A stretch of DNA of 64,000 bases from Peptococcaceae bacterium SCADC1_2_3 (GCA_000681355.2 JJNX02000004.1:757-64756); one strand, 5' to 3'. Numbered from the stretch's first letter, positions 2,704 to 64,000 are shown. Notes: generated by a model not told the origin, from the letters alone. Numbers and translations: made by a program.

Positions 2704-3495
2704 CTAGCTTTGCTTAAAATAGAGGTGGGCCTTTTCTACAACCTTAGTTATTTCTTTTTCCGGCTCCACTGAATTTAACGCTTCAGAATTAAACCATACC
2801 AGGTACTCAATATTTCCTGCCGGTCCGGTAAGGGGTGAAAAATCCAATCCTTTTACCCCCCAGCCTAACTCGTTAATCGTGCGGCATATATTGGTAATAA
2901 CCTCCTGATGAACCAAAGGGTCCTTTACCACCCCCTTTTTGCCTACCTTATGGCGGCCGGCCTCAAACTGGGGTTTAATTAAGGCTACTCCTTGGGCCAA
3001 AGGGGAAAGAAATTTTTCTAAAACAGGCAGAACTTTGGTTAAGGAAATAAAAGAAACATCAATGGTTACAAAATCAACAGGTCCGTTAATTTTTTCGGGC
3101 GTTAAATAACGAATATTTGTTCTTTCCAGGACCACTACCCGGGGGTCAACCCGCAGCTTCCAGGCTAACTGGCCGTAACCAACATCAACCGCAAAAACCA
3201 GTTTAGCCCCGTGTTGCAAGGCACAATCAGTAAAACCGCCGGTTGAAGCACCAACATCCATAATGACCTTATTTTGCAAATCCAGTTTAAAATTGCGGAT
3301 AGCCGAGGCTAATTTTAGACCGCCTCTACTAACGTAAGAAGGCGGACAAACAACCTCCAAACAGGCGCTAACACCCAACTTGTAACCAGACTTACAAATT
3401 TTTTGCCCGTTTACTTTTACCTGTCCCGCCATTATGGCCGCCCGGGCAGCTTGGCGGCTGACAAAGTATCCTTTCTCGACTAGTATTTGGTCCAA
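2704..3495 (-). CDS. tlyA: TlyA-family rRNA 2'-O-methyltransferase (S4 domain plus FtsJ-like domain)
   Basis: 263 aa containing VSRGGLKL and DVGASTGGFTD (SAM motif). Lies downstream of dxs, as in other Firmicutes. Confidence 0.9.
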   Translation of the reverse strand: MDQILVEKGYFVSRQAARAAIMAGQVKVNGQKICKSGYKLGVSACLEVVCPPSYVSRGGLKLASAIRNFKLDLQNKVIMDVGASTGGFTDCALQHGAKLVFAVDVGYGQLAWKLRVDPRVVVLERTNIRYLTPEKINGPVDFVTIDVSFISLTKVLPVLEKFLSPLAQGVALIKPQFEAGRHKVGKKGVVKDPLVHQEVITNICRTINELGWGVKGLDFSPLTGPAGNIEYLVWFNSEALNSVEPEKEITKVVEKAHLYFKQS

Positions 3496-3517
3496 CCTTT
3501 GTTTAGTCTCTATCTTC

Positions 3518-5437
3518 TTAGAACCTGCCCTGTGAATAACTTGGTGAGGCTTTAAGTTGCCCGCTATAGTTTAAAAGGGACCTTGCCGTAACCACCACCT
3601 GGTCAGCGGTTAAGCCGCAAAAAGAAAGCAACGTCTCTCTGTTTCCGTGCGGGATAAATTGCACCGGAAGACCAAGACATTTAACGGAAATATTAAATAA
3701 ATTTTTAATCGTTAAAAGTTCCAAAACGGCGGCTCCAAAACCACCGGCTAAAATATTTTCTTCAATGGTAATTATTTTTTTTGTTTTTAAGGCGTAAGCA
3801 AGAATAGTTTCCTCGTCCAAAGGTTTAATAAAACGGGCGTTAATTACCGCGGCTTCAATCCCCAACTTGGCCAGATTATTAGCTGCCTCGGTTGCTACTA
3901 ACACCATGCTTCCTGCCGCGAGTAAGGTAAGATCATCCCCCTCGCGTAAAACCTTTGCTTTCCCGATCGTCAAATTTACCGGCTTTCCAAGCATAGGTTT
4001 ACCTTGCCCCGGTCCGCGCGGGTAACGCAAGGCGGCCGGACCCGGATATTCAAGCGCGGTTTTTAGCATGTGGCGGAGTTCATCCTCGTCAGCCGGGGCC
4101 ATCACAATCATATTGGGCATGGACCGTAAATAGGTATAGTCAAAAATCCCGTGATGGGTTGCCCCATCTTCCCCTACCAGACCACCCCGGTCAACGGCAA
4201 AAGTAACCGGTAATTTTTGCGAACAAACATCAATCAATATTTGGTCATAAGCCCGCTGCAGAAAAGTAGAATAAATTGCCACCACCGGCTTTAAACCTCC
4301 GGTAGCTAAGCCGGCGCTAAGGGTAACGGCATGTTGTTCAGCAATACCCACGTCAAAAAGACGCCCGGGAAAAGCTTGCGCAAAATAATTTAAGCCGGTC
4401 CCAGAAGCCATAGCCGCGGTAACGGCCACAATTTCTTTTTTTTCCTGGGCTAAGTCAACCAGGGTACGTCCAAAAACTTCGGTGTATGAAACAGGATTAT
4501 TCTTGCGGTCAGGCTTTTTACCGGTCAGTTCAAGTGGACCTACGCCGTGAAATTTATCGGCATTAGTTTCGGCCGGCAAATAACCTTTTCCTTTCCGGGT
4601 TATCAAATGAATTAAAACCGGTTTTTTAATTGTTTGGATTTTTTGAAAAAGAGAAATTAATTCTTCTAAATTATGGCCATCTATAGGTCCGAAATAAGTA
4701 AAACCAAGTTCTTCAAAAAACTTTCCCGGCACCATTAAGTGTTTTATGGATTCTTTAAGCCGTTCCCCGATCTTAACCATTTTTGGACCTATGGCCGGTA
4801 ACTTGCGTAATATTTGTTCAATTTCTTCCTTACGGCGCAAGTATTTAGGGTCGGCCCGCAGGCGGCTTAAGTAACCAGACAGGGCTCCTACGTTAGGAGC
4901 AATAGACATCTCGTTATCATTTAAAATTATAATTAAACGCGTCTGTAAGTGCCCGGCGTGATTTAGGGCTTCAAAGGCCATTCCTCCCGTTAATGCTCCA
5001 TCGCCAATTACCGCAATTACGTGGAATGTTTCTTGATTTAAGTCCCGCGCTAAAGCCAGACCTAAAGCGGCGGAAATGGAGGTACTGCTGTGCCCCGTAG
5101 CAAAAATATCATAAAGACTTTCCTCGGGAGAAGGAAAACCATTCAGCCCCCCAAATTTTCGTAAAGTATGAAATTTAGTTCTTCTCCCGGTTAAGAGCTT
5201 ATGGGTGTAACATTGGTGCCCCACATCCCAAACAATTTTGTCCGCGGGAGTGTTAAAAACATAATGCAAAGCCAGGGTAAGCTCCGCTACCCCTAAGTTA
5301 GAAGCCAGGTGGCCTCCGTTTTGAGCCACCGTATCAATTATTTCCTGCCTGATTTCCTGGACTAATTGCTGTAGTTGAATTAAATTAAGCCTTTTAATGT
5401 CTTCAGGAGAATTAATTAACGGTAAAAGTTTATCCAC
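3518..5437 (-). CDS. dxs: 1-deoxy-D-xylulose-5-phosphate synthase
   Basis: 639 aa with GHSSTSISAALG and GDGALTGGMAFEALN (TPP-binding), plus transketolase-like C-terminal domains. Confidence 0.95.
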   Translation of the reverse strand: MDKLLPLINSPEDIKRLNLIQLQQLVQEIRQEIIDTVAQNGGHLASNLGVAELTLALHYVFNTPADKIVWDVGHQCYTHKLLTGRRTKFHTLRKFGGLNGFPSPEESLYDIFATGHSSTSISAALGLALARDLNQETFHVIAVIGDGALTGGMAFEALNHAGHLQTRLIIILNDNEMSIAPNVGALSGYLSRLRADPKYLRRKEEIEQILRKLPAIGPKMVKIGERLKESIKHLMVPGKFFEELGFTYFGPIDGHNLEELISLFQKIQTIKKPVLIHLITRKGKGYLPAETNADKFHGVGPLELTGKKPDRKNNPVSYTEVFGRTLVDLAQEKKEIVAVTAAMASGTGLNYFAQAFPGRLFDVGIAEQHAVTLSAGLATGGLKPVVAIYSTFLQRAYDQILIDVCSQKLPVTFAVDRGGLVGEDGATHHGIFDYTYLRSMPNMIVMAPADEDELRHMLKTALEYPGPAALRYPRGPGQGKPMLGKPVNLTIGKAKVLREGDDLTLLAAGSMVLVATEAANNLAKLGIEAAVINARFIKPLDEETILAYALKTKKIITIEENILAGGFGAAVLELLTIKNLFNISVKCLGLPVQFIPHGNRETLLSFCGLTADQVVVTARSLLNYSGQLKASPSYSQGRF

Positions 5438-6295: not shown

Positions 6296-6307
6296 AAAAT
6301 ATGTTAT

Positions 6308-6930
6308 AAAAAACAGGCAAGTGATAACAACGCAGGTAAATATTATGGCTTAGGTCCAGCAGGTTTTCCCAAACAATCACTGGCTGTCGCCATCCCAGCG
6401 GTTTCCCTTTAAGATTGTTTCCATACGTTGCCGCACCTGGGACTGGATTACCACTTAGTCCATACTGTAATTCCTGCATTGTCCTGGCTTCCCAGACAGC
6501 CTAGGAGTTTTCCTCAACGAAGTGTACCTTCTTCTAGCCTCTTTTGCAATAACGGTTTCAGTCTGACCGACTTTTTGCTTATAGGCCTATAACTAAAAGT
6601 CAGCCTTTTTAAAACTCATCCACCGTTACCACTCAAGGCGGGCTACACTGCACGCAGCTTGCTACCACATGCAGGTTCACACCCCAAGCCATAGACTCAC
6701 TACCCAAAAGAGATAGCTGCTCCACAAACTTAGGTCTCCGCGAAGGCAGGGTCAACGCCTGCATGCCCTTGCAGCTCGCCCTACCTTCTTAACCCCCAGT
6801 ACCAACCCCCAACTGGGCGTCGGCAGCCAGCACCAGGGACTTCATCGATGTGCCTTTAACGGATTTTTAGCCCCGCCTTCGAAAAAGACATTCCGACTAG
6901 GATACTGCATCACTTGCCTTGTTTGAATTA
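6308..6930 (-). ncRNA. ole: large structured ncRNA, most likely OLE RNA (about 620 nt)
   Basis: About 620 nt with no credible ORF between ispA and oapA. The 5' segment AAACAAGGCAAGTGATGCAG pairs with the 3' segment CTGCGTTGTTATCACTTGCCTGTTT, followed by a U-tract. Size and ispA/oapA/dxs synteny match published OLE loci. End coordinates are approximate. Confidence 0.7.
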
Positions 6931-10559: not shown

Positions 10560-11258
10560 TTGCGCCTGCTTACTTACAATATTCATTCGGGCCGGGACGT
10601 TAACGAAAAACTATCCTTACGTAAACTAGCCCGGGAAATTCAGCAAATTAAAGCCGATATAATTGCCCTTCAGGAAGTGGATAGCTACTTCTGGCGCAGT
10701 CGTTTTCGTCACCAGGCCCGTTATTTGGCCCGTTTCTTAAAAATGAACTTTGTTTTTGGGGTTAATATGCGCTACTTTTGGGTAATGCGGTACGGAAACG
10801 CTATTTTGTCCCGTTATCCTATTTTAGCTTACCACAACTATCCCCTTCTCTCATTTAAAGAAAAGCGGGGCCTGCTTTTAGCCTTAATAGCTTGCCCAAA
10901 ACAAAAAATTATTTTTCTTAATACCCACTTAGGATTAAGCAGCAGGGAGCGTGCTTTTCAAGTTAAAGAAATTCTTCATCTCGCCACCGCTTTAAACCTA
11001 CCTTTTATTTTAGCCGGAGATTTAAATGCCTCTTTTGCGGCTAAAGAATTAAAACCTCTTTTATCTTGTTTCCAACCGGCCAAGCCAGTTGTTCACAACA
11101 ACTGCGCTACTTTTCCGGCCAACCAGCCTCAGTTTTGTCTGGATTACATCCTTTTGTCAAAAGACTGGGAGGTAAATACAACCTTTATTTTACCGGCTGA
11201 AGGATCTGATCACCTTCCGGTAATAGCAAACGTTGGTTTAAATATCGTTTCGTCTTAA
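10560..11258 (+). CDS. endonuclease/exonuclease/phosphatase (EEP) family protein
   Basis: 232 aa with LTYNIHSG, IIALQEVD, GDLN and SDHLPV. Confidence 0.8.
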   Translation: MRLLTYNIHSGRDVNEKLSLRKLAREIQQIKADIIALQEVDSYFWRSRFRHQARYLARFLKMNFVFGVNMRYFWVMRYGNAILSRYPILAYHNYPLLSFKEKRGLLLALIACPKQKIIFLNTHLGLSSRERAFQVKEILHLATALNLPFILAGDLNASFAAKELKPLLSCFQPAKPVVHNNCATFPANQPQFCLDYILLSKDWEVNTTFILPAEGSDHLPVIANVGLNIVSS

Positions 11259-46371: not shown

Positions 46372-47511
46372 TCAATACCGGAACACAGCCGCTAATGGTG
46401 CGTCATCAGGCATTTCTTCCCGTTTGACTACAAAAACAGTTCCTCCGTTCATAATGGTTTGGATGGCGGCAAAGTCCAACAGGTCCCTGTCGCCAGGTTC
46501 TACTTCTTGGTGTAAATGAACTATATTGTCGTCTGGGTTAAAAGTTCCCCACTGCCAAAGATCAACAGCCACAAACAATAAATCAATCTTTCCAAAGTGG
46601 GCTGCCGGAACAATTTCTTTTATTTCTTTAGAGGTTCGTCCCGTACCTGCAAGCTGTTTGTATTGGTCAACTGCTTCCTTTTGTTTCTTCTGAAAGTAGG
46701 GTTGTATTATGGCCCAGGCCTGTTCGTGTATTTTTTCCACACTCATGCTTTCAGGATTGCCCTTAATCCCTTCGTCCATGAGGTAGGGATAATTATTTGC
46801 CTCTTTATAAATCGGAAAGAGATAATCAACCCCTGCCAACAGTAAAGGTACCTGTTCTTCTCGAAGCAATCCATGCAATCCCTTATCAATTTTGCGAAAG
46901 TACCGCAGGATATTATCCTTAGCATCATCGGTAACTGAGTGTCCATGAAAAATAGCAGTTCCTGCCGGTGAACCGCCGCTGTGCGACTGAAGCTGTCTTT
47001 CCGGATCATCATACTTTAAGGCTTCCGCCAGACTTTTAGGAATACTTTCCAGGTGAAGCGCTTTAATGAAGTCACGCGTACCCTGAAAAAATTTAACCTC
47101 GTTTTGACTGATAGCCATAATATAAAATTGCCCGTCGCCGGTAAGCAAACGAAGCAAAGGCTTAGTATGGAAATGATCCGCTACGACGGTCAATTCTTCA
47201 AAGTCAAAGGGCAGGAAATAATAGCGAAACACTTTTGACGAAAGAAACATAGCCAATCCATTGCTTTGTCGCCAAAAAGGGGCGTCCCATAAAAGTTCTT
47301 GGGCCGGTTTCAATAATTCTTTTGTCTCTGGGGAACGAAGACCGTTAGTGCTTAGTTGTTCCTCAACCCCTTTGAGCAGATTCTTAAACCTGATTAGATT
47401 TTGCTGGGATTTTGCTCCTGTCCGGTACGTAGGCATAAAAATTGAAACACAAGGCCCCTTGGATTTTTCCATAACTAATGTTTTTAGTTCATCTTTAGAC
47501 AGTATGTTCAT
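46372..47511 (-). CDS. release-factor-like protein (bacterial archaeo-eukaryotic RF family, baeRF3-like)
   Basis: 379 aa. The N-terminus LSKDELKTLVMEKSKGPCVSIFMPTYRTGAKSQQNLIRFKNLLK matches my recollection of baeRF-type proteins. Not verified. Confidence 0.4.
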   Translation of the reverse strand: MNILSKDELKTLVMEKSKGPCVSIFMPTYRTGAKSQQNLIRFKNLLKGVEEQLSTNGLRSPETKELLKPAQELLWDAPFWRQSNGLAMFLSSKVFRYYFLPFDFEELTVVADHFHTKPLLRLLTGDGQFYIMAISQNEVKFFQGTRDFIKALHLESIPKSLAEALKYDDPERQLQSHSGGSPAGTAIFHGHSVTDDAKDNILRYFRKIDKGLHGLLREEQVPLLLAGVDYLFPIYKEANNYPYLMDEGIKGNPESMSVEKIHEQAWAIIQPYFQKKQKEAVDQYKQLAGTGRTSKEIKEIVPAAHFGKIDLLFVAVDLWQWGTFNPDDNIVHLHQEVEPGDRDLLDFAAIQTIMNGGTVFVVKREEMPDDAPLAAVFRY

Positions 47512-51039: not shown

Positions 51040-52239
51040 TTAATCATATTTGAAATCGTCAAATATTTGGCCAAAATTAATTCCGGCTATTTGGATGGTC
51101 TTGCACATATCATAAATTTTTCTTTTTCCTTCCTCCAGATAGCGTGATTTTATTCCGTGCTTGATAGATAAAGATGTTTCTATAAAGGCGGCTAAATGAT
51201 CGCAAACCTTTAAGATATTACCATCTATGGGCGAAAAGCTATCTTCGTTATACTTATGGTTAATTTCCTCGCTAGAAATCCCTTTGATAATTTTCCCCTC
51301 TTGCTTAATTTTGTTTTCAAACTCATCTTCAATAAAGTACCTTATTTCTTCGTGCCAGGATGGAGGAAGTAAAGGCAATAGTTTTTCTTCCACTTGGATC
51401 TTTTCGTACTCTTTTATTATATCCTGCAAGCCCTCAACTGAACTTTTTATAGGAGATACTATGTCCCGCGTCAACATTTCTGGTAAATCATGATATAAAG
51501 CCGCCCAAAAGTTATTGCAGGTTCTTTTCCGGCAAGCTTCAAGCTCGCTAGAGCAAAGGTAAGAAATCATAGCCACTATTAGCATGTGACCCAACACGGA
51601 TGTTTTTGGTATTCTGGGGGATTGGGCCCACCTTTGTTGAAATCTGAGTTGTCCGCAAAGGTCTACGAAACCAAAGGATTTTTTACCTAACGATATTTTT
51701 TGAACCCCTATTAAATCATAATGGTCTTCAATTTGGTTTTCTATTTCCTCCTTTGTTTTTTCTATCCCGTAAATAAAAGGACTGACATTGTATATAATTC
51801 TGAATTCCCAATTCGTTGCCAGGTAATGGGCCGCCTTAAGGATCCTTTTTTCCATCTTAGAATAATCGCTATTAAATAAATAATCTTTAAACTTTTTTTT
51901 AAAATTTCCTTTTACGTCCTGAACATTGCTTTCCAACTGTTTTATAACCCATTCATTTAATTCCTTTCCCTTTTGCATCATCATTTTATGAAAGACCGGC
52001 GGCTTAATGTCGGTTAATACTACTCTTTGAAGAAACTCAAATATCCCCCCTTCAATGAGGCGCAACCAATTTATTTCTGCCCCTTTGTCTGTTTCTTCGG
52101 ATTTCGCAATTACATAAGCTATTACCATTTTATGGGCTTGCTTATCCAATTCGGTTAGTTCAACCGGCCTTATATGATCGTTCCATCTTTGAATGCTTGC
52201 CGCCTCAAAAAATCTTTCAATTAATCCCTTTCTGATCAT
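51040..52239 (-). CDS. HD-domain phosphohydrolase with a duplicated YfbR-like module
   Basis: 399 aa. The N-terminal half has RWNDHIRP and AHKMVIAY (degenerate). The C-terminal half has QRWAQSPRIPKTSVLGHMLIVA and LYHDLPEMLTRDIVSPIK (intact H...HD...D). Confidence 0.65.
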   Translation of the reverse strand: MIRKGLIERFFEAASIQRWNDHIRPVELTELDKQAHKMVIAYVIAKSEETDKGAEINWLRLIEGGIFEFLQRVVLTDIKPPVFHKMMMQKGKELNEWVIKQLESNVQDVKGNFKKKFKDYLFNSDYSKMEKRILKAAHYLATNWEFRIIYNVSPFIYGIEKTKEEIENQIEDHYDLIGVQKISLGKKSFGFVDLCGQLRFQQRWAQSPRIPKTSVLGHMLIVAMISYLCSSELEACRKRTCNNFWAALYHDLPEMLTRDIVSPIKSSVEGLQDIIKEYEKIQVEEKLLPLLPPSWHEEIRYFIEDEFENKIKQEGKIIKGISSEEINHKYNEDSFSPIDGNILKVCDHLAAFIETSLSIKHGIKSRYLEEGKRKIYDMCKTIQIAGINFGQIFDDFKYD

Positions 52240-53643: not shown

Positions 53644-53778
53644 CCTTACGGGTTATACCGGTTATCTTTAGCAAGCCGCAGCATACAGGAAAAGTTTTAT
53701 CAGATAGTCCCCTTTTTTGTGAATATGGGGCTAAAAATCGTTCCCTTTTAGACTAGCAAAAAGAAGAAGAGCATCGGA

Positions 53779-53935
53779 AAGCCGTGTGCGGGAAAACCGC
53801 ATGCACGGTTTGATGAGGAAGGATTGGCAAGTCTACTATGGTGCGGCTATTTAGGCACCGTCAAACGAAAGGGACGGAAACAGATAAGCCAGCCTAAAGC
53901 GGTCATTGCCAGTTCTCTACTCTACCTCGGTTTCT
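53779..53935 (+). mobile_element. group II intron 3' remnant (domain V and a possible domain VI/3' end)
   Basis: AAGCCGTGTGCGG-GAAAA-CCGCATGCACGGTTT (53779-53811) fits domain V: AGC triad paired to GUU, 2-nt bulge, GNRA-like loop. Downstream, CTACTCTAC resembles an intron 3' end. No RT ORF or domain I is present. Confidence 0.4.
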
Positions 53936-54045: not shown

Positions 54046-54843
54046 TTACATATTGGGAGTAAAATCCGACAAGGCCTTGCGGTCCTGTTTTATGCCAACA
54101 GCCAGCGCCAGCGTCTTTTCCCATGTCTTTTCCGTTTCATACCTGAGAAACTCATACAAGGAATTTAAATCCTCGGTTTCGTCATATTTTTGCAAGCACT
54201 CATAATACATCCGTTTATCTTCATCATAGAAAATGAGGGGTGGGTGGTTATTCGTCATGAGATAGTAATTTAGGAGCGTCCTTCCGACACGTCCGTTGCC
54301 GTCCGCAAAAGGATGGATAAATTCAAATCTCGCGTGAAGGTAGGCGGCGACTTTCAATACATCCTTGCCTTCATACGCATTGACTTCGTCAATCAGTTCC
54401 GTCAGATTGCATTCCACATCTTCCGCGGCTGAGCCAACCTCATGGATGCCGGTCACGTAATCGTGCTTTTTGAACTCACCCGGTCGTTCTTCGTTTTCAA
54501 TATATCTTCGTTCATCGTATGTTCCGCCGGTAAGTGCCCTATGGATTTCCTTGACCAGTTCCATACTCAGATGCTCCTTTTTCACGATTTTTTCTTTCAA
54601 AAGCTCGTAGCACATTTTTTGATTTTGCTGCTCAAATAAAGCGCGGGGATTACCGGTATAATTTGCGACCCTGCCGTTTTCAAAGATTTCTCTTGTATCG
54701 TGATAGGTAATATCCTCGTTTTCTATCTTTCCGGAATGGAACGCAAACAAAATACGGAAGCTGTCCAAACATTTATCCAGGTCGGCTACCGACATAATGT
54801 TGTACGACTGCCACAACTCGACCACCTGGCGATATTGATCCAT
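54046..54843 (-). CDS. fic: Fic-family protein (class II, intramolecular inhibitory helix)
   Basis: Active-site motif HPFADGNGRVGR. The N-terminal SGKIEN fits the (S/T)xxxE(G/N) inhibitory motif. Start placed at MDQYRQV after AAGGAGGG. Confidence 0.85.
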   Translation of the reverse strand: MDQYRQVVELWQSYNIMSVADLDKCLDSFRILFAFHSGKIENEDITYHDTREIFENGRVANYTGNPRALFEQQNQKMCYELLKEKIVKKEHLSMELVKEIHRALTGGTYDERRYIENEERPGEFKKHDYVTGIHEVGSAAEDVECNLTELIDEVNAYEGKDVLKVAAYLHARFEFIHPFADGNGRVGRTLLNYYLMTNNHPPLIFYDEDKRMYYECLQKYDETEDLNSLYEFLRYETEKTWEKTLALAVGIKQDRKALSDFTPNM

Positions 54844-54875
54844 GATGTATTCCCTCCTTTTTCCATTCTTTTTTA

Positions 54876-55013
54876 TTATATCACACCACGAAATGGAAAT
54901 GGGGAAATGCATTCCCTATCCCGGTCGTCGCTGAAAATCTTAAGCTTCGCATTTCCGCGGGTAGTGATGTGGTAAACTGCACCAGGATATTCTATTCTTA
55001 ACGGTCTAGCCAT
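54876..55013 (-). pseudogene. 5' fragment of an IS200/REP-associated Y1 transposase gene
   Basis: MARPLRIEYPGAVYHITTRGNAKLKIFSDDRDRE, then unrelated residues and a stop. It abuts the fic upstream region. Confidence 0.55.
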
Positions 55014-57456: not shown

Positions 57457-57533
57457 GCGCCCGTAGCTCAGGTGGATAGAGCAGCGGTTTCCTAAACCGC
57501 GTGCCGGGGGTTCGAGTCCCTCCGGGCGCACCA
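57457..57533 (+). tRNA. tRNA-Arg (anticodon CCT)
   Basis: Acceptor GCGCCCG/CGGGCGC, anticodon stem GCGGT/ACCGC with loop TTCCTAA, T-loop TTCGAGT, encoded CCA. Confidence 0.93.
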
Positions 57534-57692: not shown

Positions 57693-57968
57693 AACTTTCT
57701 ACGGAAAAACAACAAAGATATTAGTGATATTACCCAACGTTTTAAGAACGACCCAGAAGACGAGGCTTGGACCACCCGGGTGGCCAAAACAGTTTGTTTG
57801 TTGAAGTTTGTCCGTGATTTGTCGCGGACAGAAAATAATATTGCCGCCGTACTGGCAGATACGGTAGATCAACCCGCTCCTTTAGTGCCGGTTCAGGTAG
57901 CCCTAAAACACCTTATTGCGGCCCCAAAACAGAATCACTCCGGTGGAACGGACACAATACCTAATTAA
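57693..57968 (+). pseudogene. possible internal fragment of BREX brxC/pglY
   Basis: Open frame EDEAWTTRVAKTVCLLKFVRDLSRTENNIAAVLADTVDQPAPL resembles the region of BrxC following the ATPase domain. No ATPase domain is present. Confidence 0.3.
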
Positions 57969-58184: not shown

Positions 58185-58213
58185 TTGACGCCTTTTTTTC
58201 ACTAATGTATAAT
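58185..58213 (+). promoter_or_regulatory. strong sigmaA-type promoter ahead of the two-gene cassette
   Basis: TTGACG, exactly 17 nt, TATAAT. A second TTGACA lies at 58158. Confidence 0.6.
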
Positions 58214-58275
58214 GGTATTAATGCTATCATACAAGGAAGGACAAGGGGTGCGCAGTCCAGTCGATGGACTTTGAC

Positions 58276-58302
58276 CCGGTTTATACAGTCTGTATAAACC
58301 GG
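58276..58302. promoter_or_regulatory. 27-nt perfect palindrome/hairpin in the leader
   Basis: CCGGTTTATACA-GTC-TGTATAAACCGG. A related half-site TTATACAG recurs at 58382. Confidence 0.5.
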
Positions 58303-58453
58303 AACGCCCGAAATAGAAGATAACCGTAATTGTATGAAATGACAAGCTTTAGCCGAATAAACAAGAAGGCACGGCAAAATCTTATACAGAAAGAGACAGC
58401 TTGTATTTGCTGTTTTATAAAGACTATATAATCATTGTTAGGCACTTAGGAGC

Positions 58454-59692
58454 GTGCGAGAGATGAACTTACCCTCATTCCGACGATTCCGCACCGAACT
58501 AGCCAGATTGAACGTACTTGCGCGAGCTTGTGATTTCGCTTTTGAGGTTGCTAGTGGCGCGTTGAACAGGCAAATTCGCGAAGGACGGATTGATCCCTTA
58601 TTCCCTGTCTATCTGCCATGTGATCCAGGCACAGAGGTCGCCAGCAGCCATTATATATTCCTAAATAGGCTAAAAAGTCAGTTTCCCCGCTACATCCGGG
58701 AAACAATCTTCGTAAGGCTGATTTCCACATTTGAGGTGTTCTTGGTCGATTTGGTCCGCGATGTATTCATGCATCGGACCGATCTTTTTCAAAGCACAAA
58801 TGTCATCGAACTCACTCACGCCGAGGCTCTATCAGTGGCAAGCTCCGCGCATCTTCGAGAACGAGTCCTTTCGAAGGAGCTTCGACAACTGCATTCCGCT
58901 GGAATCAAAGATATCGCAAAGTACTACGAGCGACGTATGGAAATAAAGTTCCCCGAATTGCTTGATGGCATCTCTCGACTTTGGGAAATGCATGATCGCC
59001 GGCATCTTCTTGTTCATCAGCTCGGACGTGCAGACCAAGCCTACAGGCACAAATATGGTTATGCAAGAAAAGGTCCGCTGTCTATTGACGAAGGTTACCT
59101 TTCAGAGGCAATAAATACTATCATTGAATTCGCCGATACACTCGAACCAAAGGTCACTGCGCTGTTATCGGATCTGCACAATCGTGAAGGGGCCGACCGA
59201 AATGTGTTTGAACTCGAAATAGAGGTTGAAACTGCCTCTGATGAGGCAGAGCACCTGTTCCTTCCGTCTTACCCATTCATAGTCAATGATCGTGCGACAG
59301 GGGAGCGTGGTGCTCTCCTTAGTGATATCCTCGCATATTCTCGTGACGGTGAGGAAGGGGTCGTGTTGCTGCTCTGTAGTGATCGTGAGACCGTGCTTGC
59401 GTATCTTAGTGAGCTCAAGAAGCTTGAGAAGAGAGGACTACTAAGTATCATTCGAAAGGATATTCACAAGGCGCCAAAAGACGGGATGCAAGACGAACCG
59501 CCTACTAATCTTGATAGGGATACAATTGAAGAGATTGCTCGCCGCCTTCCAGCACAACCATGGTCTAAAGGCATTCACAAGGAGATTGCACAAGCGCTTT
59601 CGATCAGTAATACGCAATGTTCGCGAGCGATAAAAACAATTCTTCGTGATGATTCGCTTCTTTCTCTCGTCGGCATTTTTGAAAGTGGCTAA
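58454..59692 (+). CDS. predicted HEPN-type RNase with a C-terminal HTH-like region (hypothetical)
   Basis: 412 aa, all-alpha N-terminal half with an Rx4H motif in LWEMHDRRHLLVHQLG. C-terminal IAQALSISNTQCSRAIKTIL is HTH-like. The ATG at 58463 is the likelier start (AGGAG 10 nt upstream). Confidence 0.5.
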   Translation: MREMNLPSFRRFRTELARLNVLARACDFAFEVASGALNRQIREGRIDPLFPVYLPCDPGTEVASSHYIFLNRLKSQFPRYIRETIFVRLISTFEVFLVDLVRDVFMHRTDLFQSTNVIELTHAEALSVASSAHLRERVLSKELRQLHSAGIKDIAKYYERRMEIKFPELLDGISRLWEMHDRRHLLVHQLGRADQAYRHKYGYARKGPLSIDEGYLSEAINTIIEFADTLEPKVTALLSDLHNREGADRNVFELEIEVETASDEAEHLFLPSYPFIVNDRATGERGALLSDILAYSRDGEEGVVLLLCSDRETVLAYLSELKKLEKRGLLSIIRKDIHKAPKDGMQDEPPTNLDRDTIEEIARRLPAQPWSKGIHKEIAQALSISNTQCSRAIKTILRDDSLLSLVGIFESG

Positions 59693-59774
59693 CAAGGTGC
59701 TGCACCGGACGGCAATTCCGCTATGCTCCATTGCCCCGGTGAGCTTGGTCGTTAGCATGAAAGAAGGATGAGGT

Positions 59775-60773
59775 ATGGGTACAGAGATCAAGACTTGGCA
59801 GATCATTGATGGGAAGCTCGCGTCTATTGAAAGTACGCTCAAGAAAGAAAGCCGCACTGAACCCTACGATCTGGAACCGTGGCTCGCGTCAAACCCGGAG
59901 ATAATGGGCACAGACATCATGCTTATCGGACGACAGATCATGACGAAGTCCGGACCCATTGACCTCCTTGGGATTGACAAATCCGGAAACACTGTCATCA
60001 TCGAGATCAAACGCTCCGAGTTGCCGCGTGAATCACTTGCGCAGGCCATTGACTATGCATCGGATGTTGCGGAATGGACCGTTGAAAGACTTGGCGAGGT
60101 CTGCTCGAAGTACACAAAGAAGACTCTTCAGGAATCGTTCAACGAATTCTTCCCTGACGTTGATCTGGAAATAGTCAACCTCAACAGCACCCAACGAATC
60201 ATTTTGGTCGGATTTTCCATCGAGGCATCACTTGAAAGGATGATCGAATGGCTGTCCGATTCCTACGGAGTCAATGTGAATGCTGTCGTTCTGAGTTACA
60301 TCAAGACAAAGGGCGGAGAAGAGTTGCTGACGAAGACTTCGATCATTTCTGAGGAAATGGAGGAAGAGCGAAGGCGTAAACAGAAGAAGTTCGAGATTCA
60401 AATGTCCGATGATCCAGGTACGCACGATCACCAAGTCTTGAAACAATTGCTTCGCGACTACCTTTCGCGTGAAAGGGTTACGAATCAACGAATGCGTGAC
60501 ATCCTATTTCCGGCACTGCTCAAAACCAAGGTCTTGATTCGAGACCAACTAAAGAAGGCATTTGTGGACTTTGACCCTAACTATGACGAATCGAAGGTCG
60601 GATACTATCTCACCCTGGTTTCTTCGCAACTTGGTATGAAGAAGAATGACTTTCTCCGACAGGTAGTGGTCTACGAATACCCAAGGCATCACTGGGAGAA
60701 GGACAACTTCGCTATCCGATCCGAGTATCAGGAGTTGGTCAGGGAAGTCCTCGAAGAGCTGAAAGAGAAATGA
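59775..60773 (+). CDS. NucS/DUF91-like PD-(D/E)xK nuclease domain protein with an unknown C-terminal domain
   Basis: 332 aa. LEPWLASNPEIMGTDIMLIGRQIMTKSGPIDLLGIDKSGNTVIIEIKR gives the D...ExK arrangement typical of NucS-like nucleases. Confidence 0.55.
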   Translation: MGTEIKTWQIIDGKLASIESTLKKESRTEPYDLEPWLASNPEIMGTDIMLIGRQIMTKSGPIDLLGIDKSGNTVIIEIKRSELPRESLAQAIDYASDVAEWTVERLGEVCSKYTKKTLQESFNEFFPDVDLEIVNLNSTQRIILVGFSIEASLERMIEWLSDSYGVNVNAVVLSYIKTKGGEELLTKTSIISEEMEEERRRKQKKFEIQMSDDPGTHDHQVLKQLLRDYLSRERVTNQRMRDILFPALLKTKVLIRDQLKKAFVDFDPNYDESKVGYYLTLVSSQLGMKKNDFLRQVVVYEYPRHHWEKDNFAIRSEYQELVREVLEELKEK

Positions 60774-60873
60774 TGCGAACAACGGCTTGCAGCAGACGGT
60801 GTTTCGCATCGCCGCTTATGCCGAACGTTGGCCTCTGGAGTAAAATAGAAGAATCTGGTAGGGTTATGTTGGT

Positions 60874-61164
60874 ATGAATAATCACGAAATTGCGAAACAG
60901 ATAGCCGATCGTACCGCCAAAGCAGTCGCTCACTAATGGAAAACAAGGGCTGCCCAGCGGAAGAAACAGGAAGCAGGTGGCAAAGCCGACCAAGATCTGC
61001 GTAGTGCCGTCACTGGCGGTGCACAGATGGACGGGTTCATTGAACTTTTCTCAGAACTTGTCACACAAGCCGGAATTCCTGGGAGCTGTATTTTTAGAAA
61101 GAAGGCGGTTGAACTTACTGGTTTCTTCAGACCCACCAAGGAATGGGATCTCCTTGTTGTGTGA
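60874..61164 (+). pseudogene. N-terminal remnant of a PaeR7I/XhoI-like type II restriction endonuclease
   Basis: In-frame TAA at 60934. Then AGGKADQDLRSAVTGGAQMDGFIELF, AGIPGSCIF and LTGFFRPTKEWDLLVV, and a stop before the catalytic (E)xKSQ region. Confidence 0.45.
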
Positions 61165-61522: not shown

Positions 61523-64000
61523 ATGAATAAAAAAGCGCTGCATGATTTTACTTTAAGGGCCAGAAAACTTCTTATTTCTGAGGTAGAGGAATTACTGGAA
61601 GCGGTTTATGGCTTGCATAATAATGGAATATTTGAATCAATAGATCATTTGCCGGTAATTAGCACAGATAAAAATACAAAAAATACCAGAGCACATCTGG
61701 AAAAGTTCCTGATTGACGAATCTAAGGCCGGACTTAGAGGTCATAATGCTTATGAAAAACTGGTCAAGGAAATTGCCTTTACCTGGCTTAACCGTTTTAT
61801 AGCCTTTAAAATGATGGAAGTCCGCCGGCTTATTCGCCAGACTATCACCAAAGGAACAGATTCTAATAGTTTTAAATTGTGGCTTACCCAAGAAGGAAAT
61901 GAAGCTATCCTTTATCTATATGAAGAAGGCGATTCACCCAAGAATGCTTTCGGGGAAGGCCCCCGGGATATAGCCCTACCGGTACTTTATTTTATGGCAA
62001 TGTTCAGAGATAGCAAAGGAAATAAAAGTTCTTTTTGATCCAGGTAGTTTAGCCAGCCTTTTGTTTCCAAAGCCTCGCGCAATTAAAGAATTGGTCCAAA
62101 TGATCAATGCCAAAGAGCTTGCCGAGGAATGGCAAGAAGGAAATGAAGAAACAATTGGTTGGGTTTACCAATATTTTAATGAACCAGAAATTTTGGGTTA
62201 GTGGCCTTTGAACTCTTAGTTCAAATGTACCGCGAGGAGATAGAAAATACAGGTAAACCAGGTTGGCCTAACCAGCCGTCGGTCCCAGATACGGAACGTA
62301 TTCCGGCAGCTATTCTTGAAAATAACTTATATGGTATTGACCTTGATTTGCGTGCTGTTCAACTCTCGGCCCTGACGCTTTATTTTAAAGCCAGATCGTT
62401 CAATAGAACTGCTTTACTTAGGAATAGCAACTTAGCCTGTGCTGACGTGCTTCTTTTAAATGGCGAACGCCTGGAAGGTTTTTTACGAGAGATGCATTTA
62501 TCTCATCCTATTTACGAAAGAATTATAAAAACCCTCTGGCACCGGCTCAAAGATGCAAGCCAAACCGGTTCCCTGCTGCGTTTGGAAGATGAGATTCGTA
62601 AACTTATCTCCAAGGAGAAAGAACGGTTTAACCGGGAGGGCCGGCAGCTTGACATTTTCGGTTGGTCTTTAGAACAGTTTGAAAAGGAAGCGTCTAATGA
62701 AGAATATTGGAAAACTCTCGAACATAAAATTATTGAATCATTTAACGAGTTTGCTCGGCTTCAGGCAGAACAGGGAAAAGACGAGTCCTACTTTATCGGT
62801 GAAGCAACAAAAGGCTTGCGCTTACTTGATGTAATGCTGCGCCAGTATGATATAGTGGTAACCAACCCTCCTTACCTGGATGTCCGTGATTATAATTCCC
62901 GCTTAAAGTCATTTATGGAATCAGCCTACCCAAATAGCAAACGTAATCTTTACGCTGCCTTCCTTGAACGTTGTTTGGAGTTTCTTAAGCCGGGGGCCAG
63001 GCTGGGTATTATTACCCCCCCCAAACATTCATGTTCATTACTAGCTTTGAAAAAGTACGGGAACGCCTGCGTGGCTCAGTCACCATCGAATCGCTGGTTC
63101 ATACCGGTCTAAATACTTTTGAAGATACGGTAGTGGATTGTGCATTTTATATTTTACGCCGCGAAGCGGAGGCCGGGAAACGTCAAAACGCTGCGGCGAT
63201 CTATTTTCGCCTGGTTAGAGAACCAGATGCGCTGGCTAAGCGCCAAGCCTTTGAATCGGCGGTGGCTGCCCTCCAACGTGGCGAAAATTATCATCAAGTT
63301 TACCACTACCAGCAGGGTGATTTTGATGCTATTCCTGACAGTCCCTGGGTTTACTAGATTACACCTGGTATACGCCAGCTTTTTATTGATTTACCAAAAT
63401 TGGGTGATATAGCACAACCACGTCAGGGATTAGCTACTGCTGATAACTTCCGGTTTTTGCGCTTCTGGTGGGAAGTAGGTAAACCCCGGATTGCTTTTGG
63501 CTGCAAAAATCACGTTGAGGCTCAGGCTACGCAAAAAAAGTGGTTCCCTTACATGAAGGGCGGGGCTTACCGGAAGTGGTATGGGAATCAGGAATATGTG
63601 GTGAACTGGTATAAGGATGGTGTGGAGATCAAGAATTTAGTTGGGGAAAATGGGCGGGTTGCATCGCGCCCGCAAAACACTGATTTTTACTTTCGTGAAG
63701 GCGTAACCTGGACGGATTTAAGTTCGGCAGGCTTTGGCGCTCGTTACCTTCCGCAAGGGTTTATTTTTGACGTAAAAGGTTCGTCAGGTTTCCCTCCGGA
63801 GGATTTGATTCCTGAAGTGCTTGCGGTTTTAAATTCTAAGTGGTCGCAGTACGCACTGGCCATTTTTAATCCCACTGTCTCGTTTCAGGTCGGGGATATT
63901 GCCCGCGTTCCTGTTCTGGAAAAAAACCGGCTTTCCTCACAAATATTGTCGGGGCTTGCCCATAGAGCAATAATAATCCGTCAACAGGAGTCTACCGAAA
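61523..64000 (+). pseudogene. pglX: BREX type 1 methyltransferase pglX, disrupted (continues past the window end)
   Basis: PglX-like blocks: IAFTWLNRFIAFKMMEV, GWVYQYFNEPE, LENNLYGIDLDLRAVQL, VTNPPY, KWFPYMKGGAYRKWYGNQEYVVNW. They are spread over three frames, with an in-frame TAG and motif I missing. Confidence 0.7.

Follow-up and report, generated by a model that had tools for sequence, protein, structure and literature searches.

We analyzed a 64,000-nucleotide stretch of DNA from Peptococcaceae bacterium SCADC1_2_3 (JJNX02000004.1:757-64756), which we call the window, and two adjacent genes that it carries at 58.4 to 60.8 kb. Gene 1 encodes a probable HEPN protein with a C-terminal helix-turn-helix (HTH) domain (protein 1), and gene 2 encodes a NucS_C-type nuclease (protein 2). 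We suggest that this region is a two-cassette array without an integrase, that is, a cluster of attC sites lacking an integron integrase (CALIN), and that it lies in a decayed type 1 bacteriophage exclusion (BREX) island. The two genes would then be independent, and each would occupy its own cassette. We estimate the probability of this reading at about 0.8. A preliminary description of the same DNA had proposed that the pair forms a novel two-gene defense system. That proposal fails because homologues of the two genes do not co-occur, an attC site separates the genes, and protein 2 falls in the single-gene candidate family PDC-S11.

The two open reading frames (ORFs) are intact and co-oriented, and their coordinates and the short spacer between them are as the preliminary description gave them. 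It overlooked a structured recombination site in the spacer and a tRNA-Arg gene at the left edge of the island (Table 1). The start codon of protein 1 needs a small correction. GTG 58454 is only 1 nt past an AGGAG sequence, the ATG at 58463 is at a 10-nt spacing, and the N termini of protein 1 homologues align with the ATG start. Therefore, protein 1 likely starts at ATG 58463, which would give a product of 409 aa instead of 412 aa. Residue numbers of protein 1 are counted here from GTG 58454.

An attC site is defined by an R'' box (RYYYAAC), an R' box (GTTRRRY), L stems with extrahelical bases, and a crossover point at G/TT (PMC12901181). The window contains two such sites, attC1 after gene 1 and attC2 after gene 2, and both have the R'' and R' boxes, the L stems with extrahelical bases, and recognition by an attC model; a cassette boundary at G/TT is seen at attC1. 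attC1 reads GGCTAAC-AAGGT-GCT-G-CACCGG-A-...-CCGGTG-AGC-TTGGTC-GTTAGCA, and its DNA fold has a predicted energy of -15.6 kcal/mol. The R'' box of attC1 contains the TAA stop codon of protein 1. Between the boxes, 5 unpaired nt are followed by 3 bp, one bulged base, 6 bp, and a bulged A; a variable loop comes next, with 6 unpaired nt on the far side. attC2 begins immediately past the protein 2 stop codon and is 83% identical to the attC upstream of the L029 copy. The R'' and R' boxes are complementary at 6/7 positions in attC1 and 5/7 in attC2, and the AAC and GTT triplets are invariant in 19/19 aligned sites. The outer box positions of the window sites deviate from the strict RYYYAAC/GTTRRRY consensus.

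The same pattern is found in many copies of protein 2. A GTTxxxx box lies 15 to 25 nt before the ATG, and an xxxxAAC box lies at the stop codon, followed by an imperfect inverted repeat that ends in a second GTT box. The stop codon of P0003 lies in GGCTAACAAGGCGTTGCACGTG, a conserved R''-L'' half-site, and the protein 1 homologue in locus L080 is followed downstream by TTCTAACAAGACGCTCCAGCGGACG, an attC remnant. A first rule-based attC filter, which asked for 5 to 6 of 7 complementary box positions and an R'' near the stop codon, was too strict and retained 3/39 sites. Ranking by folding energy alone did not separate the sites from shuffled sequences. We therefore used covariance models.

Six attC-like sites from other loci, and no window sequence, went into the first model, R1. 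We scanned both strands of the 64 kb with filters off. R1 gave two matches with an E-value of <0.01, both on the gene strand: attC1 (45.4 bits; rough E-value, 1.2e-9) and attC2 (31.8 bits; rough E-value, 6.2e-6). Over 719 kb of loci, 20/20 R1 matches were on the gene strand, held-out sites included, and some of them adjoin protein 1 homologues (L006 and L080). The refined model, R2, whose training alignment included both window sites, recovered just these two in the window, with 55.3 bits for attC1 and 46.8 bits for attC2. In the loci, 21/21 R2 sites were on the gene strand; 13 loci have such a site adjoining a protein 2 homologue, and L006 and L080 have one adjoining a protein 1 homologue. 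A weak attC-like R1 match at 3151 to 3219 on the minus strand (17.9 bits, E = 0.04) was not reproduced by R2 and is probably due to chance.

The structure is also visible in how the sites vary. Among the 19 aligned sites, 90.1% of cells were paired, compared with 72% in shuffles (0/500 reached the observed value) and 20 to 44% with slid partners, in an alignment that was fitted to the model and so favors the structure somewhat. Compensatory changes occurred in 11/18 pairs. The L helix was 96.5% paired, with covariation in 8 of its 11 pairs. As a positive control, we ran R2 with filters off on three class 1 integrons. It found six sites, all on the cassette strand and with scores of 24 to 59 bits: one after aadA1 (R100), one after aadA2 (pFBAOT6), and four in R46. 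For five of the six, the position is the 3' end of an annotated cassette gene (aadA1, aadA2, or blaOXA-2) or just past it. The two sites by blaOXA-2 overlap the last ~37 nt of that gene, and L102 2931-2990 lies inside the annotated orfD coding sequence. No other R2 match with an E-value of <0.01 was found on the three integrons.

Comparison with other copies of gene 2 defined the boundaries of the second cassette. The window and locus L098 share a stretch of 89% nucleotide identity from 59751 to 60808. Its first position is the G of GTTAGCA, with unrelated flanks; this homology break is the G/TT crossover point of attC1. No synteny between the window and L098 was found beyond protein 2. In the other copies, homology starts between 59733 and 59775 and mostly ends between 60749 and 60797, the end in L098 being the latest. 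The conserved unit extends from ~25 to 40 bp before the ATG to at most 35 bp after the stop codon. Where an attC is scored upstream of a copy, the ATG lies 18 to 25 nt past the site end and 24 to 31 nt past the G of GTT. The protein 2 ATG in the window is 24 nt past that G. Cassette 2 spans 59752 to 60827. The end of cassette 1 is at 59751, and its start is probably at 58438.

The 5' side of cassette 1 carries a GTTAGGC box. No attC is scored to its left, and therefore this boundary is placed by the box and a homology break. Within the leader (58214 to 58462), the 110 nt left of the box share 81% identity with the sequence that precedes a distant protein 1 homologue (L094, 7 to 118), and the same stretch partly matches L071 (2453 to 2502), ahead of an unrelated ORF. 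In the window, L094, and L071, the similarity stops at ...TCATT/GTT, and different ORFs follow. Judged from these sequences, the leader element behaves like an attI site; neither model scores it, and no integrase is near. A strong promoter-like site further upstream may drive both cassettes. The leader also holds a perfect palindrome. We considered TATACAGNCTGTATA as an operator of protein 1 and rejected it; the palindrome is present in 2/47 protein 1 loci and in one protein 2 locus and is therefore not a feature of the protein 1 family. Rfam found nothing in the leader.

The plus strand carries both attC sites, at a distance of 1,017 bp. A tblastn search of the 64-kb window with IntI1, a query 100% identical to the annotated intI1, found no integron integrase or integrase pseudogene at E-values of ≤1; the window shows 3.2 kb downstream of attC2. 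A CALIN is a cluster with two or more attC sites inside 4 kb on the same strand that lacks an integron integrase (PMC4889954), and the array is therefore a CALIN by that definition. It is not a complete integron: intI is missing, and the element upstream of protein 1 is not recognizable as attI or attC. Like known CALIN and integron cassettes, the window has two attC sites that are separated by ~1 kb on one strand and directly follow promoterless ORFs, each ORF having a ribosome-binding site, and it shares with them the canonical attC architecture, the boundary at G/TT, and the lack of a nearby intI. Unlike them, it has only two scored sites, the second apparently partly decayed; the host is a Firmicute; and the array lies inside a BREX remnant by a tRNA gene, not downstream of attI.

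In Firmicutes, one complete integron is known and "a few CALIN" have been reported (PMC9024848). A CALIN with defense-candidate cassettes in a Firmicute is unusual, not unprecedented. In L052, a metagenome-assembled genome (MAG) of Eubacteriales, tblastn found an IntI-like fragment (1942 to 2172) with 56% identity to IntI1 residues 254 to 330. An attC and a truncated copy of protein 2 (3082 to 3551) lie ~900 bp downstream of the fragment and share its strand, and this locus may be a degraded integron in a Firmicute. The same search found a weak recombinase remnant in L008.

The preliminary description had made the pairing depend on co-occurrence of the two genes elsewhere. Reciprocal tblastn, for which we had collected 41 loci from genomes (protein 2) and 40 from metagenomes (protein 1), revealed no linkage. 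A protein 2 homologue was present in 0/47 protein 1 loci, 24 of which have at least 1.2 kb of downstream sequence, and a protein 1 homologue was present in 0/50 protein 2 loci, 37 of which extend at least 1.4 kb upstream. No NucS-like neighbor was present in the gene tables of six protein 1 homologues. The closest relative of protein 1 (P0002 in L006, 71% amino acid identity) lacks protein 2, and the closest relative of protein 2 (P0025 in L098) lacks protein 1. The sole other contig with both genes, L099, is 99.86% identical to the window; it therefore comes from the same organism and is not an independent co-occurrence. We also looked for another conserved partner of protein 1. None recurred among 149 neighboring ORFs from 20 loci, where no Pfam family occurred more than three times and no PADLOC model more than four times. 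Because attC1 lies between them, gene 1 and gene 2 belong to separate mobile cassettes. They are not a partnered system, and the pairing is refuted on the terms that the preliminary description itself set.

Protein 2 matches the Pfam NucS_C model over residues 32 to 95 with 39 bits (cutoff, 24), and D63, E77, and K79 are invariant in its relatives, which bears out the NucS-like PD-(D/E)xK core proposed earlier. The remainder of the protein had been said to contain no recognizable motif. AlphaFold and Foldseek indicated that its C-terminal end is a winged-helix domain, and a middle alpha/beta region precedes it. The AlphaFold model has a predicted local distance difference test (pLDDT) score of 50 overall and is confident in the C-terminal domain (~212 to 332) alone; the poor model results from a shallow alignment, in which all members are at least 74% identical. 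Foldseek matched the C-terminal domain to winged-helix DNA-binding domains and the N-terminal part to Pyrococcus NucS (2vld), and both matches are weak with this model. The scores against the NCBIfam NucS equivalogs were 41 and 32 bits, with cutoffs of 216 and 252, respectively. Protein 2 is therefore not a NucS orthologue. The two-domain NucS/EndoMS architecture was not found, as the NucS_C core alone matches. Protein 2 shares with NucS/EndoMS this RecB-like PD-(D/E)xK core with its D...ExK triad and differs from it in that the nuclease domain is N terminal and no NucS N-terminal domain was detected.

The PADLOC search that the preliminary description had suggested placed protein 2 in the single-gene candidate family PDC-S11. 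The best model, PDLC04916, matched residues 1 to 204 (E = 2.7e-44), four more models matched with E-values of 1.6e-28 to 1.1e-16, and a sixth, PDLC04914, matched with an E-value of 2e-4. A PDC-S11 member is a stand-alone gene that matches the hidden Markov models of the family; besides these matches, protein 2 is a stand-alone gene in all contexts examined. The protein differs from the family in its C-terminal winged-helix half, which is unlike most of the profiles. PDC families derive from association with defense islands. PDC-S11 is a candidate family, and the literature support that we found for it is correlational.

Protein 2 has 1,457 relatives. The best-scoring 120 are all full length and 74 to 100% identical, and they come from many phyla. 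P0025, the closest, has 90% amino acid and 89% nucleotide identity. Its locus (L098, 1583 to 12131) is a defense island with the order AIPR, a tetratricopeptide repeat protein, Mrr, the protein 2 homologue, and an MmeI/PglX-like methyltransferase. Three homologues examined by gene table were stand-alone genes in unrelated contexts. For copies in Methanothrix/Methanosaeta MAGs (L020, L023, L024, L034, and L039), amino acid identity is ~67 to 79% with the window protein and reaches 82% with other bacterial members; nucleotide identity with the window gene is ~70 to 74%. No attC was scored adjoining these archaeal copies. Identities of this level in archaea suggest cross-domain transfer of the gene.

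Protein 1 has no match in Pfam, NCBIfam, PADLOC, or PHROGs. A word-indexed search found 22 relatives, with identities from 71% down to ~30%. A profile search of 1.84 billion representatives found 2,508 clusters at E ≤ 1e-3 and 240 at E ≤ 1e-30, counted at 50% identity. Most of the best 150 clusters are ~380 to 440 aa long, and the remainder are shorter and mostly partial. S91, E94, R183, H188, G191, and D194 are the only six invariant columns in an alignment of 77 members, whose identity to the window protein ranges from 21 to 71%. The RRHLLVH sequence singled out in the preliminary description is thus an Rx4H motif whose R183 and H188 are invariant. The residue after R183 (H184) is nearly invariant, which puts a polar residue after the arginine.

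The AlphaFold model of protein 1 has a pLDDT of 82.5. It starts with an N-terminal helix and hairpin, followed by a helical HEPN-like domain (~66 to 244), an alpha/beta domain (252 to 339), and a three-helix HTH (355 to 403). The central domain and HTH-like end described before are therefore present in the model, and HTH families recur at the C terminus in Pfam scans of the members. The Rx4H motif closes the helix at 173 to 188, and the invariant acidic residue E94 is in a long helix (66 to 107). HEPN domains are recognized by an Rx4-6H motif, a polar residue after the arginine, and an upstream acidic residue that is typically in Ex3[KR] (PMC3710099). Protein 1 has the conserved motif at a helix end with the polar residue in place, and the surroundings of E94 are not Ex3[KR]. 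The HEPN fold is a four-helix up-down bundle, and residues 66 to 244 are helical in the model.

The sole non-HTH Pfam family that recurs among the members is HEPN_RiboL-PSP (PF18735), found in 21/77 with a best E-value of 6.8e-5. The match of P0150 (22.4 bits; gathering threshold, 28.4; E = 1.3e-4) covers profile positions 26 to 189 of 191 and residues 79 to 235, including the Rx4H helix. Searches with profiles against PDB sequences returned nothing for protein 1, and a Foldseek search of viral models matched one uncharacterized phage protein (E = 2e-3). No PDB structure matched at E ≤ 1e-3, and therefore the HEPN fold is not structurally confirmed. The HEPN assignment of the preliminary description stands as far as the motif and the family matches carry it, and the structure searches gave it no confirmation. 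Protein 1 probably carries a HEPN domain distantly related to the Ribo L-PSP-HEPN/Abi2 clade, and from its sequence it appears to be a distant relative of PF18735, not a member.

Protein 1 resembles the Ribo L-PSP-HEPN and Abi2/Swt1 clade (PMC3710099, PF18735) in its Rx4H motif with a polar residue, its upstream invariant acidic residue, its full-length subthreshold matches, and its stand-alone genes in conflict contexts. It differs in lacking an L-PSP domain and in having, instead, the alpha/beta domain of unknown fold and the C-terminal HTH. Like AbiJ, it joins a DNA-binding domain and a HEPN domain in a single protein. AbiJ-type proteins have the order HTH-HEPN, and the order in protein 1 is the reverse. 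Protein 2 is comparable to Shedu (SduA), which is also a single-gene NucS-like nuclease. No PADLOC Abi or Shedu model matched either protein. The contexts of protein 1 homologues in six gene tables included Hachiman, toxin-antitoxin (TA) clusters, an E2/E1/JAB gene, and plain metabolic operons. One homologue (L001, 4890 to 7543) adjoins Hachiman (HamA and helicase) on an element with MobA and a transposase. Another, on the P0007 contig, adjoins an E2/E1/JAB fusion gene.

The array lies between two remnants of a type 1 BREX locus, as the preliminary description had noted, with a short brxC fragment on one side and a fragmented pglX on the other. The brxC fragment matches profile positions 485 to 544 of 1,180 (E = 1.3e-9). 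pglX is in at least three pieces (61523 to 62038, 62201 to 63112, and 63031 to 63357), which cover profile positions 8 to 132, 359 to 610, and 543 to 642. An intact set of brxA, brxB, brxC, pglX, pglZ, and brxL was not found within the 64-kb window; the check reached the window end (64000), and the two remnants are all of the BREX present up to there. Directly after attC2 is an XhoI-family restriction endonuclease pseudogene, possibly what is left of a third cassette. This pseudogene has a frame break, and its match is truncated at position 66 of the 191 in the profile. Left of the tRNA-Arg gene are housekeeping-type genes with Pfam matches, including a LysM/BsuPI protein and a SLOG-family protein. 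The survival of two intact ORFs amid decay had been taken as a sign of selection. This is not established, as acquisition after the decay of BREX explains the same pattern.

Table 1. Coordinates of the genes, sites, and remnants in and around the array
Feature	Position	Strand	Details
tRNA-Arg (CCT)	57457..57533	+	ARAGORN and Rfam tRNA model; left edge of the island
brxC pseudogene fragment	57780..57968	+	62 aa, mid-gene; PADLOC BrxC PDLC02476
Promoter-like TTGACG-17-TATAAT	58185..58213	+	Consensus scan, 11/12 matches; ~250 nt upstream of protein 1
Perfect palindrome CCGGTTTATACAGTCTGTATAAACCGG	58279..58303	.	Leader of protein 1; fold z-score -2.9
GTTAGGC box	58437..58443	+	Matches GTTRRRY perfectly; 20 nt ahead of the ATG; putative 5' limit of cassette 1
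Gene 1 ORF (protein 1)	58454..59692	+	412 aa from GTG 58454
Cassette 1 ORF, protein 1 (likely start)	58463..59692	+	Homologue N termini, AlphaFold model, 77-member alignment
attC1 (cassette 1)	59687..59757	+	R'' GGCTAAC, R' GTTAGCA, crossover G 59751
Spacer between gene 1 and gene 2	59693..59774		82 nt
Gene 2 ORF (protein 2)	59775..60773	+	332 aa, ATG start
Cassette 2 ORF, protein 2	59775..60773	+	NucS_C nuclease, middle alpha/beta, C-terminal winged helix; PDC-S11 member
attC2 (cassette 2)	60774..60833	+	R'' TGCGAAC, R' GTTGGCC, crossover G 60827
XhoI-family restriction endonuclease pseudogene	60866..61162	+	Pfam XhoI on 60937-61162, E 1.8e-22
pglX (BREX methyltransferase) pseudogene	61523..63357	+	PADLOC PglX matches on three ORFs

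We weighed four other explanations. One is the novel two-gene system itself, in which a HEPN RNase and a NucS-like DNase would work together. In its favor, two intact, co-oriented genes lie side by side in a decayed locus with 82 nt between them; RNase and DNase pairings are known in defense; and the pair recurs in a second sample (L099), but on a nearly identical contig of the same organism. This does not fit the lack of co-occurrence in 47 protein 1 loci and 50 protein 2 loci, with the nearest relative of each gene found without the other, or the attC and its G/TT homology break between the genes, or the place of protein 2 in a single-gene candidate family. The patterns of divergence also differ, as the 22 relatives of protein 1 fall to ~30% identity and the best 120 of the 1,457 relatives of protein 2 all stay at 74% or above. 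We regard cooperation of the two genes as extremely improbable. Another explanation is that the two hairpins are ordinary terminators or unrelated repeats instead of attC sites. Both directly follow stop codons, where terminators are expected, and no integrase is nearby. However, neither hairpin is followed by a T-run, and a terminator scan called neither of them. They have AAC/GTT terminal boxes, unpaired spacers, and extrahelical bases; R1, made from sites in other loci, picks just these two in the window; R2 finds the textbook attC sites of R100, pFBAOT6, and R46; and homology breaks at G/TT. We consider the terminator explanation very improbable.

The genes could also be auxiliary or backup effectors of BREX that were recruited into its locus. 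HEPN and PD-(D/E)xK nucleases are embedded in BREX core loci as backup effectors (PMC12839542), and the PARIS defense system is embedded in the Salmonella BREX island (PMC11341690). The two genes sit between brxC and pglX, and the L098 homologue of protein 2 is directly upstream of the PglX/MmeI-like methyltransferase. This reading is weakened because the BREX in the window is dead. Moreover, homologues of both genes are mostly outside BREX loci, the flanks in L098 and the window are unrelated, and the attC sites point to cassette-type acquisition, not to coevolution with BREX. We judge recruitment by BREX to be unlikely. The fourth explanation accepts the cassettes and questions their function: they could be addiction or toxin-type modules, or could serve other nondefense functions, and have been kept as selfish or recently acquired elements. 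TA genes are the commonest annotated cassette function (PMC9668308), HEPN domains are often toxins (PMC3710099), and many protein 1 neighborhoods are housekeeping. P0003 follows several TA pairs, and in L008 the copy of protein 2 comes after a BrnT toxin. Against a toxin role, scans of neighboring ORFs found no recognizable antitoxin partner for either gene, PDC-S11 is a PADLOC phage-defense-candidate family, several homologues adjoin Hachiman, Mrr, AIPR, restriction-modification, or E1/E2/JAB genes, and integron cassettes have been shown by experiment to carry many defense systems (bioRxiv 10.1101/2024.07.02.601719). A nondefense function is possible, and we think it rather doubtful.

Several observations weigh against the reading that we prefer, the two-cassette CALIN with independent defense-candidate genes. 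The window has neither an integron integrase nor an integrase pseudogene, and neither R1 nor R2 scores an attC upstream of protein 1. attC2 has several stem mismatches, and its R'' box fits RYYYAAC at 4/7 positions, which suggests that this site is partly decayed. The E-values of the covariance models come from a short calibration and are rough. Most protein 2 copies, including those of Methanothrix, have no attC-scoring neighbor, and the family is therefore not exclusively cassette borne. For protein 1, all HEPN_RiboL-PSP matches among the family members are below threshold, and the window protein itself has none; the Foldseek search of PDB had no match reaching E ≤ 1e-3, and none of the 50 matches listed is a HEPN entry. 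The anti-phage role of either gene and the enzymatic activities are predictions from these data.

The cassettes are most readily compared with the bacteriophage resistance integron cassettes (BRiCs) (bioRxiv 10.1101/2024.07.02.601719). Both are small, with one or two genes of a defense type, and homologues in both cases are also found outside integrons, with or without attC. Unlike the window genes, which are known by sequence, BRiCs come from mobile class 1-type integrons of Proteobacteria and were tested with phages. The BRiC report mentions no HEPN or NucS-type cassette.

We propose the following mechanism. Each gene and its following attC would be a mobile unit of its own, and the folded bottom strand of the attC would be the substrate of an integron integrase, which would cut it at G/TT. 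The two genes would have arrived as independent units and would act independently. Protein 1 may be a metal-independent RNase that uses R183 and H188 and serves as an abortive-infection or toxin-like single-protein effector, with its alpha/beta domain and HTH functioning in sensing, nucleic acid binding, or autoregulation. Protein 2 is predicted to be a DNA endonuclease with D63, E77, and K79 in its active site and to be targeted by the C-terminal winged helix, possibly as a stand-alone restriction nuclease in the manner of type IV enzymes or of Shedu.

Other features of the window lie outside the array. A full-length OLE (ornate large extremophilic) RNA was identified by Rfam at 6305 to 6929 on the minus strand (501 bits); from the known distribution of this RNA, the host is presumably a Firmicute. 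A group II intron catalytic-domain match is at 53777 to 53925 on the plus strand (44.5 bits). No plus-strand ORF of at least 100 aa is immediately upstream of it, and the intron may be ORF-less or degraded. A Fic-domain gene at 54046 to 54912 on the minus strand matches the PADLOC PDC-S04 and SoFic models (E = 1.5e-38) and is a further defense candidate, on the housekeeping side of the tRNA-Arg gene. Minus-strand genes at 46372 to 47511 and 51040 to 52239 encode a bacterial eRF1-like (baeRF) family protein and an HD_3/YfbR-like protein, respectively. ARAGORN called a 97-nt tRNA-His at 11035 to 11131 on the minus strand. The Rfam tRNA model did not confirm it at gathering score, and the call may be a false positive or an unusual intron-bearing tRNA.

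In place of a two-gene immune system, our analysis offers a mechanistic reading in which the two integron cassettes are mobile independently of each other. Neighboring genes with a short spacer and a separate ribosome-binding site can mimic an operon when the spacer is a recombination site. The array adds a further case of integron-type cassettes with defense candidates in a Firmicute; integrons are very rare in this phylum. The PDC-S11 nuclease family circulates as an attC-flanked cassette across many bacterial phyla. More speculatively, protein 1 may stand for an uncharacterized family of HEPN-alpha/beta-HTH effectors that act as single proteins, a fairly large family that Pfam, NCBIfam, and PADLOC v2 do not contain. 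It would then be a new anti-phage or abortive-infection system of the stand-alone type that is spread partly by cassettes. Finding it with the PDC-S11 cassette in a Firmicute BREX remnant that has no integrase would then point to cassette capture in Bacillota by an unrecognized route, which may be cryptic integrase activity, secondary-site insertion, or transformation followed by recombination. This unannotated HEPN-HTH family is a candidate for a single-gene defense system or toxin.

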